Source: Clostridia bacterium
GTDB taxonomy: Bacteria > Bacillota > Clostridia > UMGS1883
DNA length: 54,303 nucleotides
Assembly (NCBI GenBank): GCA_045596985.1
Contig: JAZODM010000019.1
Span: 1-54,303, forward strand
Direction of reading: 5' to 3'
The position numbers and the translations under genes were made by a program. Shown piece after piece: positions 2,009 through 8,547 of this stretch (positions are counted from its first letter, which is position 1; each line of letters starts with the position of its first letter). The notes below the pieces were generated by a model. The model was not told the origin of the DNA, did no database searches, and was given only the letters and a program-made list of their open reading frames with translations.

Positions 2009-3379
2009 TTACTTTATTTTTGGAAGGCTTGCTGCTGCAACCGACTGCCCCACTCTTCTTGCTTTTTCATCAGGAATATGAAGAGTAATCTTCTCACTAA
2101 GCTCGGGGAATTCTGTCCTGAGAACTTCTTTCGCCTGATTAAGAAGAATTGTACCGCCCTTACCGCTTGTAACTCTGCCCATAATAAGAACGTGCTTTAT
2201 ATCATAGAAAATCGAGTAATAAGCAATTGTATAGCCAAAATATGTACCGATTGTTTCATAAATATCTGCCGCACGGCTGTCGTCATTTTCCATAAGACCC
2301 TGAACAACCTTGAGCTTTTCTGCAGGTGAAAGGCTTTCATCAAGCTCAATTCCTGCCTTAGGCGCAAGCTTTATTACAGCATCCTGCGAGAAATACTTAA
2401 CACCGCAGCCATAATCACCGCTCCACTCGTCAACCATCGCACCCTTATTAAAGTCAACGGGAACGAACGCAAGTTCGTTAAGCCAGCCTGTTATATTTCC
2501 GTCCTTGTCAACATAACCTGCCGCCTCGCTCGTACCCATTGCAACGCCGAGTACGTTGTTATCCTCAAGGCTCATTGCGCCTGCCAGTGCTGTTACGTCA
2601 CCGTCATTTGCAACCTCAACGGGAACATCGCCGATTTCCTTTGCAACGTCAATGTACATATTCTTTACGTGCTTTTCAAAATCTTCATCAGATACCTTTA
2701 AGAAGAGTGATGCAACCATTATTTTGTTATCAATGTATACACCTGCTGATGAAACACCGATAGCATCAACTCTGGGCATATGTGATGCCGCAGTCTTCAT
2801 TGCGTTTAAAATACCCTCGTAATGATACATCGGGACGCTCTGAAGCTTGGGGAACCATACAACCTCGACAGAAAAAACTGTTTCACCGTCAACTACGGCA
2901 GAAACCTTACGGTCACTTCCGCCTGCGTCAAAGCCGATACGGCAGCCGTCAAGGTGACGGCCTACGGGTGATGATTTATCGTTTTCCTTGGGGGCATCCT
3001 GTACATTTTCAACATAGACAACTTCAAAAGGCTTTTCGTATACACGTGCCATAAAGTTAAAGTCAAATTCCCTTGCACCGCCAACGGAGTAATCTGCTGC
3101 AATACGCTCGTAAATATATTTAGAGCCTGCAACATATACCTTGTATCCGCCCTTCGCCCAAAGTAAGGTCTTAATAATTCTTTCTACTATTTCATAGTTT
3201 TCTTCATCGTGACCTGTATTTTCCTTATAAACGTCGAGCTTATATACAGCCATAAGTCCTCCGTTTCTCTCTACACAAACACAAACAGGCTGTGAGGGTG
3301 CATTTTTTACTGCTTCTTTATAATCGTTTATAACCTTTACCATTGGCATAAATTGTGGTTCAAGTTTTGCAATCATCAT
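2009..3379 (-). CDS. ASKHA-superfamily (ROK-like) sugar kinase with an unassigned N-terminal extension of about 150 aa
   Basis: Phosphate-1 motif IGFDAGGSDRK and ROK-like ANDGDVTALAG are present. The ROK CxCGxxGCxE zinc motif is absent. The ATG overlaps the nagA stop by 1 nt (TAATG), so the two genes are translationally coupled. Confidence 0.65.
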   Translation of the reverse strand: MMIAKLEPQFMPMVKVINDYKEAVKNAPSQPVCVCVERNGGLMAVYKLDVYKENTGHDEENYEIVERIIKTLLWAKGGYKVYVAGSKYIYERIAADYSVGGAREFDFNFMARVYEKPFEVVYVENVQDAPKENDKSSPVGRHLDGCRIGFDAGGSDRKVSAVVDGETVFSVEVVWFPKLQSVPMYHYEGILNAMKTAASHMPRVDAIGVSSAGVYIDNKIMVASLFLKVSDEDFEKHVKNMYIDVAKEIGDVPVEVANDGDVTALAGAMSLEDNNVLGVAMGTSEAAGYVDKDGNITGWLNELAFVPVDFNKGAMVDEWSGDYGCGVKYFSQDAVIKLAPKAGIELDESLSPAEKLKVVQGLMENDDSRAADIYETIGTYFGYTIAYYSIFYDIKHVLIMGRVTSGKGGTILLNQAKEVLRTEFPELSEKITLHIPDEKARRVGQSVAAASLPKIK

Positions 3380-4635: not shown

Positions 4636-5598
4636 ATGAATTATCTTGATAAAGAACTTTTGAAAAAAGCGAACGTGGAGGCAATCTATAACGTATATAT
4701 GTATCTTGCGTACAAAAGCACCCCTGCGCCAAAGGAAACTTTTAAATCAATCGTGAGTACTCTGGAAGAGGATTTTAAAAACCCTTTCACTAACACATGG
4801 AGCGAGCGCGAAATACTACGGCTTAAAATCTTAAAAAATGCAGTGCGCTTTGACAGCGTTATCGCAAATTCAGTTATTGAAAACCTTATCGTTTCAAAAA
4901 GCCTTATGACGGCGTGCGCCTTTACAAAGCCTGATGAAAGCGTTTCCATTGTTTTTAAAGGGACGGGGAAAAGTGAATGGATTGATAATGGGGAGGGGTT
5001 AAGCGGTATTCCTGAGGAAAATACATATATTTTTTACAAAAAGGACGGGCGGGAGGAAGGCAGAAAAACTGTATACAACGATTTTGCCACAGACCAACAG
5101 GTCAGTGCACTCAACTGGTTTTATTTGACGGTGGCAAAGTGCGGCTGGGATAAAGACACAGGCATTACCGTTTCAGGTCATTCAAAAGGGGGCAACAAGG
5201 CGCAGTTTGTTGCAATTAATTCAGATCTGCCGCAGCTTTGCATCAGCTTTGACGGGCAGGGTTTTTCACCAGAGGCACTATCCGCACTCCAAAAAAAGCA
5301 CGGCGCACAATATGAAAAACGACGACAAAGCATCTATAGCTTTGCCGCCGAAAATGACTATGTAAATGTTCTTGGGGAGCCGCTTGTGCCGCCAAGTAAT
5401 ATGTATTACTTCAAATCGCGCGGAGGAGTTCATTATATGGAGGCTATTCTTACCTCGCGCGGCAAATTACGCCGCCAATGCGAGCAGGGGAAAACCTCTG
5501 CACACGTGCAAACCCTCTCGCGTGAGCTTATGAAAAAGCCGCCGCAGCTTCGCAGTTATATAACCTTGGGAGCAATGAACATTTTTCAGGAGAAATGA
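4636..5598 (+). CDS. DUF2974 / Mbeg1-like alpha/beta-hydrolase (lipase-like) protein
   Basis: 320 aa with nucleophile elbow GHSKGGNKA. SD GAGGAG upstream of the ATG. Family assignment is from memory of the GHSKGG-containing DUF2974 family. Confidence 0.55.
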   Translation: MNYLDKELLKKANVEAIYNVYMYLAYKSTPAPKETFKSIVSTLEEDFKNPFTNTWSEREILRLKILKNAVRFDSVIANSVIENLIVSKSLMTACAFTKPDESVSIVFKGTGKSEWIDNGEGLSGIPEENTYIFYKKDGREEGRKTVYNDFATDQQVSALNWFYLTVAKCGWDKDTGITVSGHSKGGNKAQFVAINSDLPQLCISFDGQGFSPEALSALQKKHGAQYEKRRQSIYSFAAENDYVNVLGEPLVPPSNMYYFKSRGGVHYMEAILTSRGKLRRQCEQGKTSAHVQTLSRELMKKPPQLRSYITLGAMNIFQEK

Positions 5599-5610
5599 AT
5601 ATGACGAAAA

Positions 5611-5712
5611 AAAGCCTGACTGTATCAAGCTTTTTAGTTCCTCGAAATAGGCACGATGACGGCTGGATAATAGGTTGCTGAGGGGCTAAAAAGCTTGGCA
5701 CAATCAGGCTTT
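5611..5712. repeat. Long inverted repeat (26-nt arms, 50-nt spacer) between convergent genes
   Basis: Arms 5611-5636 and 5687-5712 pair at 23 of 26 positions (plus one G-U) on the + strand. On the - strand two of the mismatches become G-U, and a T7 run follows the hairpin. Confidence 0.7.
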
Positions 5713-5722
5713 ATCGCATATT

Positions 5723-7345
5723 TTATTCTGCGTTATGACCTCGCTCTTTTATTGTGTCCGCAATTAAAGAAGCATATTCTTTACATTTTTCTTCGCTTTC
5801 GCTTTCAATCATTATACGGATAACAGGCTCTGTTCCGCTCTTACGAAGAAGTGCTCTGCCGTTTCCTGCAATAAGCGTTTCTACCTCTGAAAGCTTTTTC
5901 AAAACCTCACTGTCAGAGAGAACTGCCCCTTTATCCTTTACACGAACATTTTGTGTGTACTGCGGATAAAGTATAACAGGCGCTGCAAGCTCCGAAAGCG
6001 GCAGTTTACTATCGCAGATTTCCTCCGTCACCATAATGGCGGTGAGAATTCCGTCACCCGTTGTTGCATATTTTTTAAGGATAATATGTCCTGACTGCTC
6101 TCCGCCGAGGCAGAAATCCTTTTCCTGCATACATTCATATACAAAACGGTCACCTACATTGGTCTGCTCACACTTGATGCCTTCCTTTTCCAGGCTCCGG
6201 ATAAATCCGCTGTTTGACATAATTGTTGCAACAACAGTATTGCCGTTGAGCATTCCTCTTGATTTAAGACGCTTTCCAAGGATATAGAGCATCTTATCCC
6301 CGTCTACAACATTACCGTTTCCGTCAACCGCTATACATCTGTCCGCATCTCCGTCAAAGGCAAAGCCTACGTCAAGGTGCTGCTCTCTTACAAGACGGCA
6401 CAGGTTTTCTATATGTGTAGAACCGCAGTTTTCGTTAACATTAAGTCCGTTGGGGTCTGCACCTATTACAACAGTCTGCGCACCGAGTGCACCGAAAACC
6501 GATTTTGCAATCATCCACGATGCTCCGTTTGCACAGTCAAGACCTATTTTGAGGTTTTTATACGAATGTGAAGCCAGGGAAATAAGGTATCCCACATATC
6601 TGTTTCTGCCCGAGGAATAGTCAACAATACAGCCTATCTTTTCTCTGCACGCAAGCGGCAGGTCATCCCCTGAAACTCCGATAGCACTCAAATTACCGTC
6701 AATATATGCTTCAATAAGTGCCGTAACCTTATCATCAAGCTTTTCGCCGTAGCGGTTTATAACCTTTATTCCGTTATCATAGTAGGGATTATGTGATGCA
6801 GTAATCATAATACCGCAATCAAATTCCTCCTGTCGTGTTACATATGAAACGCTTGGCGTTGTTGTAACGTGGAGCATATATGCGTCAGCACCTGATGCAG
6901 TTATTCCTGCTACAATTGAATATTCCAGCATATAGCTTGAACGCCTCGTATCCTTTCCTATTACGATACGTGGTCTGTAGCCTGCTTTAGCACATCCTGA
7001 AAGGGGGGAGGAATAATACCAGCCAAGGAATCTGCCCACCTTGTATGCCTGCATAGATGTCAGGGTAAGATTTGCCTCCCCACGAAATCCGTCTGTACCA
7101 AAATATTTATTTTTTATTTCTTTATCAACGCTTTTAAGAGAAAGATTTATTTTATCATGCAAAAGCTCATCCGCCGAAACATTAAAAAGCTCGCAAAGCT
7201 GCAGTACCTTATCAATCTGCGGAAGAGCCTGATCCATTTCCCATTTTGAAACGGATTGCCTTGATACCGAAATTTTTTCAGCAAGCTGTTCCTGTGATAT
7301 ATCTGCCGCTATGCGAAGGGATGCAATTTTTTCACCTATTGTCAT
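5723..7345 (-). CDS. glmM: XRE-type HTH domain fused in frame to phosphoglucosamine mutase
   Basis: Residues 1-65 (MTIGEKIASLRIAADISQEQLAEKISVSRQSVSKWEMDQALPQIDKVLQLCELFNVSADELL) form an HTH_3/XRE pattern. From KYFGTDGFRGEAN onward it is full-length GlmM-like, with active-site TASHNPYYDNGIK, metal loop FDGDADR, and GEQSGH. Confidence 0.85.
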   Translation of the reverse strand: MTIGEKIASLRIAADISQEQLAEKISVSRQSVSKWEMDQALPQIDKVLQLCELFNVSADELLHDKINLSLKSVDKEIKNKYFGTDGFRGEANLTLTSMQAYKVGRFLGWYYSSPLSGCAKAGYRPRIVIGKDTRRSSYMLEYSIVAGITASGADAYMLHVTTTPSVSYVTRQEEFDCGIMITASHNPYYDNGIKVINRYGEKLDDKVTALIEAYIDGNLSAIGVSGDDLPLACREKIGCIVDYSSGRNRYVGYLISLASHSYKNLKIGLDCANGASWMIAKSVFGALGAQTVVIGADPNGLNVNENCGSTHIENLCRLVREQHLDVGFAFDGDADRCIAVDGNGNVVDGDKMLYILGKRLKSRGMLNGNTVVATIMSNSGFIRSLEKEGIKCEQTNVGDRFVYECMQEKDFCLGGEQSGHIILKKYATTGDGILTAIMVTEEICDSKLPLSELAAPVILYPQYTQNVRVKDKGAVLSDSEVLKKLSEVETLIAGNGRALLRKSGTEPVIRIMIESESEEKCKEYASLIADTIKERGHNAE

Positions 7346-7441
7346 AAATACAACTCCTTGTGGGAAAATATTGGTATATCATATTAATTATATTCAATTG
7401 TATCAGAGAAAATACATATCATCAACCAACTTTACTTTGAA

Positions 7442-7468
7442 TTTTTTGCAACCTGCAGTTGCAAAAAA
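7442..7468. promoter_or_regulatory. Perfect inverted repeat TTTTTTGCAAC-CTGCA-GTTGCAAAAAA upstream of HTH-glmM (candidate operator)
   Basis: 11-bp arms with a 5-nt spacer, about 100-120 nt upstream of the start at 7345. It sits just upstream of a plausible -35/-10 pair (TTGATG-17-TACAAT on the minus strand). Confidence 0.4.
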
Positions 7469-7508
7469 TTCGCTTTTTCTCTTTGTTACAGTTTTTATTA
7501 TACAAGAA

Positions 7509-7548
7509 AACGCAAAAGTTGTAAACTTTAATTTACAGCTTTTGCGTT
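7509..7548 (-). terminator. Terminator of the dGTPase-like gene
   Basis: 17-bp stem AACGCAAAAGTTGTAAA / TTTACAGCTTTTGCGTT (one G-U), followed by TTTT on the minus strand. Confidence 0.75.
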
Positions 7549-7554
7549 ATAAAA

Positions 7555-8547
7555 TCATATTTTATTCCACGACCTCGGCACATAAATATCATTAAATGTA
7601 TATATTGCAAAACGGTCGCTCATCCCTGCGATGTAATCGCAAACTGCCCTTTCAATACCCTGTGTCCACGCAATTTCCTGCATATGAATGGGAAGTGCAT
7701 CAGGCTTTTCGCAGTAATATGTGAAAATGCCCTCTATTATTCCGTGAACCTTGGCTTCTTCTTTTTTTGCGCTTGAGCCTACATACACGTATTCAAACAT
7801 AAATTTGCGCAGAGCGTTCATTGCAAGCTCCACTTCTTCTGTCATAAGGATTTCGCCTTTTCCCTGAGATGCAAAAATAATATCCTTCACAAGGGTGTTT
7901 ATCCTCTCTGAATGGGTTTCCCCAAGAATATCGGTAATGCTCTTTGGAATACTTTGCGGCGATATAACTCCACCGCGGCACGCGTCATCAATATCGTGGT
8001 TTATGTATGCAATTCTGTCTGCATACTTAAGGACTGTTCCTTCAAGGGTCTGCGCCTCGCAATCACCGGGGTGGTTTTTTATTCCGTCAAGTACTTCTTC
8101 CGTCAGATTAAGGTTTTCAAGCACCTCTACAACACGCAAGCTCTGCTCATTATGGCGAAAACCACTGCTGCACAGCGTATCAAGTGCCTTTTCCCCTGCG
8201 TGACCGAACGGCGTATGCCCCAAATCGTGACCCATCGCCATTGCCTCTGCCAAATCCTCGTTAAGCCTGAGCGAGCGCACAATTGTGCGCGCAATCTGCG
8301 AAACCTCCAGCGTATGGGTAAGACGTGTTCTGTAATGGTCACCCTCGGGCGTAATAAAAACCTGCGTCTTATGCTTTAAACGGCGAAATGCCTTGGAATG
8401 AATTATTTTATCCCTGTCGCGCTGAAATTCGGTGCGTATATCGCATAATTCACACGGTTCTTTTCTCCCCTTAGTATTCTGCGAAAGCATCGCATACGGG
8501 GAGAGTGTTTCACGCTCTATCTTTTCAGTTTGCTCACGTATTGTCAT
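7555..8547 (-). CDS. dgt: dGTP triphosphohydrolase-like HD-domain protein
   Basis: FQRDRDKIIHSKAFRRLKHKTQVF, RLTHTLEVSQIAR, and the HD motif GHDLGHTPFGH. Confidence 0.85.
   Translation of the reverse strand: MTIREQTEKIERETLSPYAMLSQNTKGRKEPCELCDIRTEFQRDRDKIIHSKAFRRLKHKTQVFITPEGDHYRTRLTHTLEVSQIARTIVRSLRLNEDLAEAMAMGHDLGHTPFGHAGEKALDTLCSSGFRHNEQSLRVVEVLENLNLTEEVLDGIKNHPGDCEAQTLEGTVLKYADRIAYINHDIDDACRGGVISPQSIPKSITDILGETHSERINTLVKDIIFASQGKGEILMTEEVELAMNALRKFMFEYVYVGSSAKKEEAKVHGIIEGIFTYYCEKPDALPIHMQEIAWTQGIERAVCDYIAGMSDRFAIYTFNDIYVPRSWNKI

Follow-up and report, generated by a model that had tools for sequence, protein, structure and literature searches.

A conserved fusion of phosphoglucosamine mutase to an XRE-type helix-turn-helix domain, with a co-occurring candidate operator, in uncultured gut Clostridia

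Introduction

Peptidoglycan and further glycans of the cell envelope depend on phosphoglucosamine mutase (GlmM), an essential enzyme that in Bacillota is also a hub controlling the synthesis of cyclic di-AMP (c-di-AMP). What, then, could a DNA-binding domain be for on such an enzyme? The question is raised by a contig of a Clostridia bacterium (JAZODM010000019.1, assembly GCA_045596985.1), the 54,303 nucleotides of which make up the window analyzed here, and in which one open reading frame (ORF) joins an N-terminal helix-turn-helix (HTH) domain of the XRE, or Cro/C1, type to a complete GlmM. The product is referred to below as HTH-GlmM. A first-pass annotation, made from the letters of the window alone, had described the fusion, knew of no characterized example, and suggested that the protein may regulate its own gene or the amino-sugar genes. 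A full-text literature search likewise found no paper on an HTH-GlmM or an HTH-phosphohexomutase, and with that no sign that the architecture had already been described, an outcome that the annotation had counted against its own proposal. The present computational analysis finds a real, conserved fusion with a promoter-operator unit that, across the loci compared, co-evolves strictly with it, and the comparative evidence argues that HTH-GlmM is most likely an autoregulating GlmM.

The fusion protein and its junction

The ORF opens with an ATG (7345-7343) behind a Shine-Dalgarno (SD) sequence, AAGGAG, at 7359-7354; its parts are listed in Table 1. Pfam places HTH_3 at residues 7-61 with 52.9 bits against a cut-off of 23, and HTH_19 and HTH_31 are likewise above cut-off on the N-terminus, so the segment does not fail as an HTH, which the annotation had named as a further way of being wrong. 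AlphaFold2 (AF2) predicts five helices in it, at residues 3-13, 18-24, 29-36, 44-54 and 58-62, with a predicted local distance difference test (pLDDT) score of about 90; the recognition helix reads approximately VSRQSVSKWE, and the best match of the HTH alone in the Protein Data Bank is ImmR of ICEBs1 (7T8I, E 2e-6). The linker that follows is predicted with a pLDDT below 50 at residues 70-77. Beyond it, PGM_PMM_I-IV follow in order over residues 80-530, all far over their Pfam cut-offs, TIGR01455 (glmM) covers residues 82-533 with 498.2 bits against an NCBIfam equivalog cut-off of 447.55, and the closest solved structure to the mutase part is GlmM of Bacillus subtilis (7OJR; 415 bits, residues 79-533). 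AF2, run on an alignment of homologues, gives this part a confident four-domain fold. The active site is intact: besides the phosphoserine and metal-binding loops, a sugar loop (GGEQSGH, residues 414-420) and a phosphate loop (RKSGTEP, residues 501-507) are present, and all four are invariant in 59 aligned homologues. Pfam and NCBIfam therefore agree with the earlier description of an HTH_3 domain, a linker and a complete GlmM in a single ORF. By all of the sequence features tested, HTH-GlmM would be classed as a GlmM and as a member of the HTH_3 superfamily, and the structural model suggests an enzyme that is normal except for the DNA-binding module tethered to it.

It had also been claimed that no in-frame start codon lies near the junction. 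This was not quite so, as an in-frame TTG is found at codon 62, 17 codons ahead of KYFGTDG; because it has no SD sequence and is not conserved, however, the mutase has no start of its own, and the substance of the claim holds. Among 31 orthologues no conserved internal start was found, and 11 of them have no ATG, GTG or TTG at all within the 30 codons before GTDG.

Nor is the junction an assembly error. More than 100 homologues share the HTH and GlmM architecture, and the best 120 homologues in the databases (82-97% identical; NCBI, ENA, JGI and Logan) are full-length fusions except for two records. Logan contigs of four other public gut-metagenome runs cross positions 7029-7600, with insertions and deletions solely in the non-coding DNA upstream of the ATG, so that independent runs and homologues agree on the point that the annotation had wanted verified. 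Its remaining concern, that orthologues might prove to be split into two genes, was answered by at least 29 full-length fusions and two nested derivatives without the HTH. Every one of these four possibilities that the annotation had set against itself came out in favor of the fusion. In two NCBI records, P0005 and P0006 (504 aa, 96-97% identical), the start has been called at the equivalent of M37, inside the HTH, which hides the fusion, and fused homologues are annotated merely as "phosphoglucosamine mutase".

Distribution, origin and selection

Sequence comparison finds HTH-GlmM conserved in a group of uncultured Clostridia of herbivore guts, with fused genes in at least 40 species-level metagenome-assembled genomes (MAGs) from the guts of ruminants and other herbivores. 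The source MAG measures 1.25 Mb, is 78% complete, and has HTH-GlmM as its only match above the GlmM cut-off. A survey of the 39 species genomes of its GTDB genus gave 23 with a full-length fusion, one in which the fusion is cut by a contig end (G050), one with a C-terminal fragment of the fused type (G001), one with an HTH-less derivative (G016), 10 with only a very different GlmM (42-45% identity, starting MGRLFGTDGVRG) and three in which no GlmM was found. G050 was considered as an HTH-less genome and rejected, as its contig stops inside the HTH. Of the 23 genomes with a full-length fusion, 22 have no GlmM other than the fused one, and the second, canonical glmM for which the annotation had proposed a check was not found in the source genome. 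The exception, G048 (90% complete, 1% contamination), carries both GlmM types, on C47 and C7, possibly as a transitional state or through bin chimerism.

When one genome per species was scanned, 18 more fused genes with identities of 70-83% came to light, in MAGs from the guts of herbivores that include roe deer, goat and sheep. No fused form more distant than these was among the best 150 matches of an exhaustive, profile-free search, which covered 1.8 billion representatives of 50%-identity clusters; the nearest relatives beyond the fused clade are unfused GlmMs of the Lachnospiraceae/Oscillospiraceae type, at 56-61% identity. L066 and L077, fused at first sight in a tblastn search (query 3-537), were rejected because the additional match comes from an upstream ORF of its own, which encodes a hexapeptide transferase.

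The fused genes make up a single clade in a maximum-likelihood tree built from the mutase part, with support of 99 in the SH-like approximate likelihood ratio test (SH-aLRT). This clade comprises 30 fused rows and two nested rows without the HTH, and therefore one gain and two losses of the HTH are indicated. The unfused GlmMs of the genus cluster with those of the order's other families, a long branch away, and because of this placement the fused gene appears to be a xenologue that took the place of the ancestral glmM in some members of the genus. In one of the HTH-less derivatives (G016; L024, G016:C40:7700-10400) a remnant, KKIGDEI...LPDNK, runs into KYFGTDG, and promoter and operator are gone; this gene probably restarts at a TTG. 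The other, L048, begins MSFERKVNKYFGTDG behind an unrelated upstream gene.

Over 29 orthologues, mean amino-acid identity is 73% in the HTH, 76% in the mutase and 20% in the linker, and the ratio of nonsynonymous to synonymous substitution rates (dN/dS) is 0.12 for the HTH and 0.08 for the mutase. As estimated from these alignments, the HTH is under purifying selection and the linker is unconstrained.

Candidate operators upstream of the fused genes

In every fused locus (29/29), the palindrome GCAAC-N5-GTTGC stands 22-23 nt upstream of a near-consensus -35/-10 pair, and the fused loci keep it despite differing upstream neighbors and otherwise unconserved intergenic DNA. In the window it forms the core of a candidate operator, O1, centered about 66 nt before the predicted start of transcription. 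With a position weight matrix (PWM) trained on 27 sites and the best score taken within 300 nt upstream, all 29 fused loci score at least 14.9 bits (14.9 and 22.3 for the two untrained loci), whereas the 77 unfused loci reach at most 7.4 bits, that is, have no O1. The unfused loci without O1 include both HTH-less derivatives, G016 and L048 (-8.6 and 1.2). The HTH and O1 have thus changed together in three independent events. Within its own 1.25-Mb genome O1 is the sole strong site at 29.1 bits, the runner-up being a site of 17.0 bits inside a coding sequence, and the core motif is enriched about three-fold over the reversed control in fused genomes, with no enrichment in unfused ones. The earlier idea of autoregulation accordingly gains strong support from comparison, as the palindrome keeps a fixed distance from the -35 element in all fused loci and is missing from all unfused ones.

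A second, weaker operator, O2, is proposed more tentatively. It lies downstream of O1 by two helical turns, with its center at about -44, and 21 of 27 fused loci have 6-8 of the 10 half-site positions matched at an offset of +22/23, against 3-4 at control offsets. No third phased operator was found in the 27 loci.

Strain variants in two public runs fall within 7453-7457 (loss of one base at 7454, insertion of a G after 7457, and C>T at 7456), and the spacer remains at 5 nt. That the variants alter the sequence of the O1 spacer and not its length is consistent with a constraint that acts on the spacing and not on the letters themselves.

Several other explanations of the palindrome, and of the HTH, must be considered. 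Were it an RNA or terminator hairpin instead of a protein site, one could point to a terminator scan that flags 7438-7472 on the plus strand. However, no plus-strand gene ends there, the palindrome is followed in the gene sense by an A-tract and not a T-run, its arms are just 5-7 bp long in most relatives, and changes in the arms are not compensatory, with TCAAC on the left facing GTTGC on the right in the closest relatives (loci L005-L008); there is also no Rfam match and no known RNA element in the leader. A hairpin is accordingly very improbable.

It could also be that the HTH binds DNA elsewhere, in nucleoid association or at other targets, and that O1 belongs to another regulator. Related genomes do encode XRE paralogues with similar helices and the same palindrome before their own genes, but a pattern search of the source genome finds no other protein with an SRQ-VSKWE-type helix, that genome holds no second O1-like site, and in each of the three events described above O1 came or went along with the fused HTH. 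We consider this improbable. The paralogues in question are stand-alone XRE genes with a VSRQAVSKW helix, of 182 and 119 aa, in G013:C57 (L114 position 95) and G017:C54 (L128 position 1251), each with GCAAC-N5-GTTGC 50-90 nt upstream of its start. As stand-alone genes with a like helix have the palindrome upstream, a wider class of HTHs may read it, as the comparison suggests.

A third explanation would give the HTH no role in transcription, either as a surface for protein contacts or oligomerization, with CdaA or other cell-wall enzymes as partners, or as a decaying relic. GlmM binds and inhibits the c-di-AMP cyclase CdaA in Bacillota (PMC8573169, PMC6368335), cdaA is found in 34 of the 39 genomes of the genus, and two lineages dropped the HTH and kept the enzyme, all of which would be in keeping with such a role. 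Yet purifying selection on the HTH is comparable to that on the enzyme, the canonical DNA-recognition helix is conserved, and the strictly co-occurring palindrome would be left unexplained, so that we regard this explanation as quite improbable.

Table 1. Positions of the features discussed, numbered within the window
Feature	Position	Strand	Basis and remarks
HTH-GlmM fusion gene, 540 aa + stop	5723..7345	-	ORF list, sequence, Pfam, NCBIfam
XRE / Cro-C1-type HTH domain, residues 1-62	7160..7345	-	HTH_3, AF2, orthologue identity
Flexible linker, residues 63-78, about 16 aa	7112..7159	-	Low orthologue identity; low AF2 pLDDT
Complete phosphoglucosamine mutase module, residues 79-540 + stop	5723..7111	-	TIGR01455; B. 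subtilis GlmM 7OJR
Phosphoserine loop TASHNP, residues 182-187, catalytic Ser184	6785..6802	-	Aligned to ASHNP of B. subtilis GlmM
Metal-binding loop DGDADR, residues 331-336	6338..6355	-	Alignment to B. subtilis GlmM
Candidate operator O1	7442..7468	.	Core GCAAC-TGCAG-GTTGC at 7462-7448 (gene sense), in 11-bp perfect arms
Candidate weaker operator O2, TCAAA-GTAAA-GTTGG	7426..7440	-	22 bp from O1, abuts -35; tentative
Predicted promoter P2, TTGATG, 17 nt, TG-n-TACAAT	7397..7425	-	Promoter scan; fixed distance to O1 in fused loci
Promoter-like match P1, TTTACA, 17 nt, TATAAT	7497..7525	-	11/12 match; stronger than P2
Probable terminator, inverted repeat + T-run	5601..5712	-	Directly after glmM stop; read from sequence

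Promoters, neighboring genes and the putative regulon

Two candidate promoters can be read upstream of the gene, P2 and P1 (Table 1). The terminator hairpin of the HD-domain gene upstream overlaps P1, which is conserved solely in L005-L008. In these relatives the near-consensus P1 site (window 7497-7550) precedes an SD-like AAGGAGG, and a possible ORF of 21 codons then runs through the operator.

The glmM gene is probably monocistronic here and in L005-L008, since a hairpin with a T-run follows the stop codon and the next gene is convergent. The arms of this repeat, of about 26 bp, and its loop, of about 50 nt, are unusually large for an intrinsic terminator. The neighborhood had been described as a monocistronic glmM beside nagA and a sugar kinase. 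Monocistronic it appears to be, and both genes are nearby; however, the convergent gene (4636-5598, Mbeg1-like) separates glmM from nagA (amidohydrolase) and the ROK-family kinase, which lie downstream on the glmM strand, and an HD-domain dGTPase-like gene lies upstream. The kinase coupled to nagA (2009-3379) matches ROK from residue 148 only, with 25.5 bits, and its first ~150 aa have no Pfam match. Many other fused loci have, downstream of glmM and in the same orientation, a gene for a hexapeptide (LbH) transferase and after it nagB or glmS.

Control of the neighboring amino-sugar genes, the other half of the earlier proposal, was not supported for nagA and the kinase. No O1-like site is found at the nagA/ROK-kinase promoter of the window, and only two of about 20 fused relatives have one before nagA, of 23.7 bits in G019 and 11.1 bits in G015, the PWM reporting threshold being 11 bits. 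The former (G019:C3, ~99800; L115/L154) is a perfect TTGCAAC-N5-GTTGCAA lying 37-53 nt upstream of nagA, and the latter (G015:C3; L146) a full GCAAC-N5-GTTGC upstream of nagA. With these nagA sites the putative regulon may extend, sporadically, into amino-sugar catabolism. A regulon in the source genome was considered and rejected, as no second credible PWM site exists there. An intergenic GCAAC-AAAAA-GTTGC does occur at G000:C54:1658, about 60 nt upstream of a comM/yifB-like start and with a divergent membrane-protein gene opposite, and falls below the threshold owing to its spacer and flanks. Full palindromes in 13 fused genomes lie at unrelated places or in terminator hairpins. The sole other long HTH protein inspected in the source genome, on C47, is an ordinary regulator of the HTH and TPR-like kind and carries no enzyme fusion.

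Nor was a relation of the fusion to the c-di-AMP genes found. The annotation had contrasted this locus with the cdaA-cdaR-glmM operon of other Bacillota, and glmM does stand apart from it; this is nothing special, however, as cdaA is never beside glmM in the genus, in fused and unfused genomes alike, and lies on other contigs in the relatives. In the source assembly, which is incomplete, no DAC domain was found. The glmS ribozyme is absent from 38 of the 39 genomes of the genus and present in G018, and feedback by glucosamine 6-phosphate (GlcN-6-P) must therefore work otherwise in this lineage. A link of the fusion either to cdaA/cdaR or to the ribozyme was rejected, as fused and unfused genomes do not differ in these respects.

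Discussion

Taken as a whole, the evidence points to HTH-GlmM as a bifunctional protein, the phosphoglucosamine mutase of its cell and at the same time a regulator of its own promoter, of the type known as a trigger enzyme; on the sequences compared, we give this reading a probability of roughly 65%. The sequences show the fusion itself, its intact active site, the selection acting on the HTH, and the strict joint presence and joint loss of domain and palindrome; binding of O1 and O2 by the HTH, the sign of the regulation and its possible modulation by glucosamine phosphates or by the state of the phosphoserine are inferences. A model may be constructed as follows. The enzyme module would convert GlcN-6-P to glucosamine 1-phosphate (GlcN-1-P) in the usual way. 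XRE HTHs bind palindromes as dimers. The GlmM dimer, which is M-shaped, is held together by domain 1 (PMC8573169), and the ~16-aa linker of HTH-GlmM ties the HTH to the N-terminus of this same domain; because the dimer forms via domain 1 and the HTH sits on its N-terminus, one dimer could present two HTHs to the O1 palindrome, the half-sites of which are 12 bp apart center to center. A second dimer may then occupy O2, next to the -35 element, and occupancy of the two sites would provide a concentration-dependent feedback on glmM transcription. In the source genome this circuit would control GlmM itself, because the gene appears to be monocistronic there and O1 is the only strong site. In relatives where glmM heads an operon with the LbH transferase and nagB or glmS, the same promoter-operator unit may control hexosamine flux more widely.

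Such feedback could be negative or positive. Repression, and with it negative autoregulation, is somewhat favored over activation because the promoter hexamers are near consensus. The competing idea is that HTH-GlmM acts as an activator at O2 and O1, recruiting RNA polymerase as lambda CI does at PRM or as a class I/II activator does, with positive feedback or substrate-induced expression as the result. Operators centered at -44 and -66 would sit where activators classically bind, and they leave the -10 as well as most of the -35 free. Against this, the promoter is near consensus and has an extended -10; promoters of that kind usually need no activator, and XRE autoregulators are mostly repressors. 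Activation is the less likely alternative, albeit one with the geometry on its side. What the circuit would sense can be put forward only tentatively. Occupancy of the active site by GlcN-6-P, GlcN-1-P or glucosamine 1,6-bisphosphate (GlcN-1,6-bisP), or phosphorylation of Ser184, might alter the geometry of the dimer or the freedom of the HTHs, and hence the occupancy of O1 and O2. In that event the flux through the first committed step toward uridine diphosphate N-acetylglucosamine (UDP-GlcNAc) would directly set the transcription of glmM and, in relatives, of the operon, in place of the lacking glmS ribozyme; we hold this to be possible but doubtful.

A number of observations weigh against autoregulation by HTH-GlmM. 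O1 lies upstream of the -35 and not over the promoter, so that repression by O1 alone is not obvious, and O2 is degenerate and missing from 6 of 27 loci. If P1 is active, O1 falls downstream of its start, inside the transcript; a search for transcripts returned DNA runs only and no RNA runs, and the transcription start is a predicted one. As 27 of the 29 fused sites went into the training of the PWM, their scores are partly circular, and the 78% completeness of the source MAG leaves room for a second GlmM or for further sites. In addition, the fused clade is young, with identities of at least 70%, and conservation of the promoter could partly reflect common descent, although the DNA on either side of O1 has not been conserved among the fused loci.

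If the bifunctional reading is true, a phosphohexomutase would join the short list of enzymes that double as DNA-binding regulators, and the locus would provide a natural and recent example of an enzyme that recruited a repressor module together with an operator, the HTH having been gained once and cleanly lost twice, and both GlmM types occurring in a single genus. There is a practical consequence for annotation as well, as pipelines give these proteins the plain name "phosphoglucosamine mutase", and in at least two records a start at M37 conceals the HTH domain.

Comparison with known systems places HTH-GlmM between several familiar groups. Residues 79-540 align end to end with the canonical GlmMs of B. 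subtilis (7OJR), B. anthracis (3PDK) and S. aureus (6GYZ), with which the four loops are shared. The differences are ~78 extra N-terminal residues, made up of HTH and linker, an insertion of 7 aa in domain 1, characteristic of the "KYFGTDGFRG" subtype of Clostridia, and a gene that is not beside cdaA/cdaR. With BzdR of Azoarcus sp. CIB it shares the order of an N-terminal XRE HTH, a linker and a domain of enzyme fold, and BzdR regulates the operon of the pathway to which its C-terminal domain relates (PMC3602430). However, the kinase-like domain of BzdR is an effector sensor without catalysis, whereas the module of HTH-GlmM looks fully catalytic from its sequence and is the sole GlmM. Nor does HTH-GlmM belong to the BzdR subfamily, as its C-terminus is a phosphohexomutase with no SKI match; the folds are unrelated, and BzdR is an analogue.

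Closer in function are BirA, PutA, NadR and the archaeal RbkR (PMC5397151), each of which combines an active enzyme and a transcription factor of its pathway in one chain, a combination that is predicted here. Trigger enzymes with a fused DNA-binding domain constitute a functional class and not a homologous family, and what defines their architecture appears to be present: an intact enzyme with an HTH, and a candidate operator at its own promoter, which in relatives heads a pathway operon. Several members of the class are, moreover, autoregulators with a single target or a few. They differ in having other DNA-binding folds (winged HTH, ribbon-helix-helix) and other enzymes, and effector coupling has been shown for them; none concerns a phosphohexomutase or the synthesis of amino sugars or cell-wall precursors. 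The regulators that do control hexosamine genes on GlcN-6-P or N-acetylglucosamine 6-phosphate (GlcNAc-6-P), namely NagC/Mlc (ROK), NagR/YvoA (GntR/HutC; PMC2853113) and the glmS ribozyme, are, unlike HTH-GlmM, non-catalytic paralogues or RNA. Finally, in its short-spaced palindromic operator and its pair of helically phased sites, the putative arrangement of O1 and O2 resembles that of ImmR (ICEBs1) and of repressors of the phage 434/lambda type; in these the C-terminus is a dimerization or cleavage domain, whereas in HTH-GlmM it is a 460-aa enzyme.

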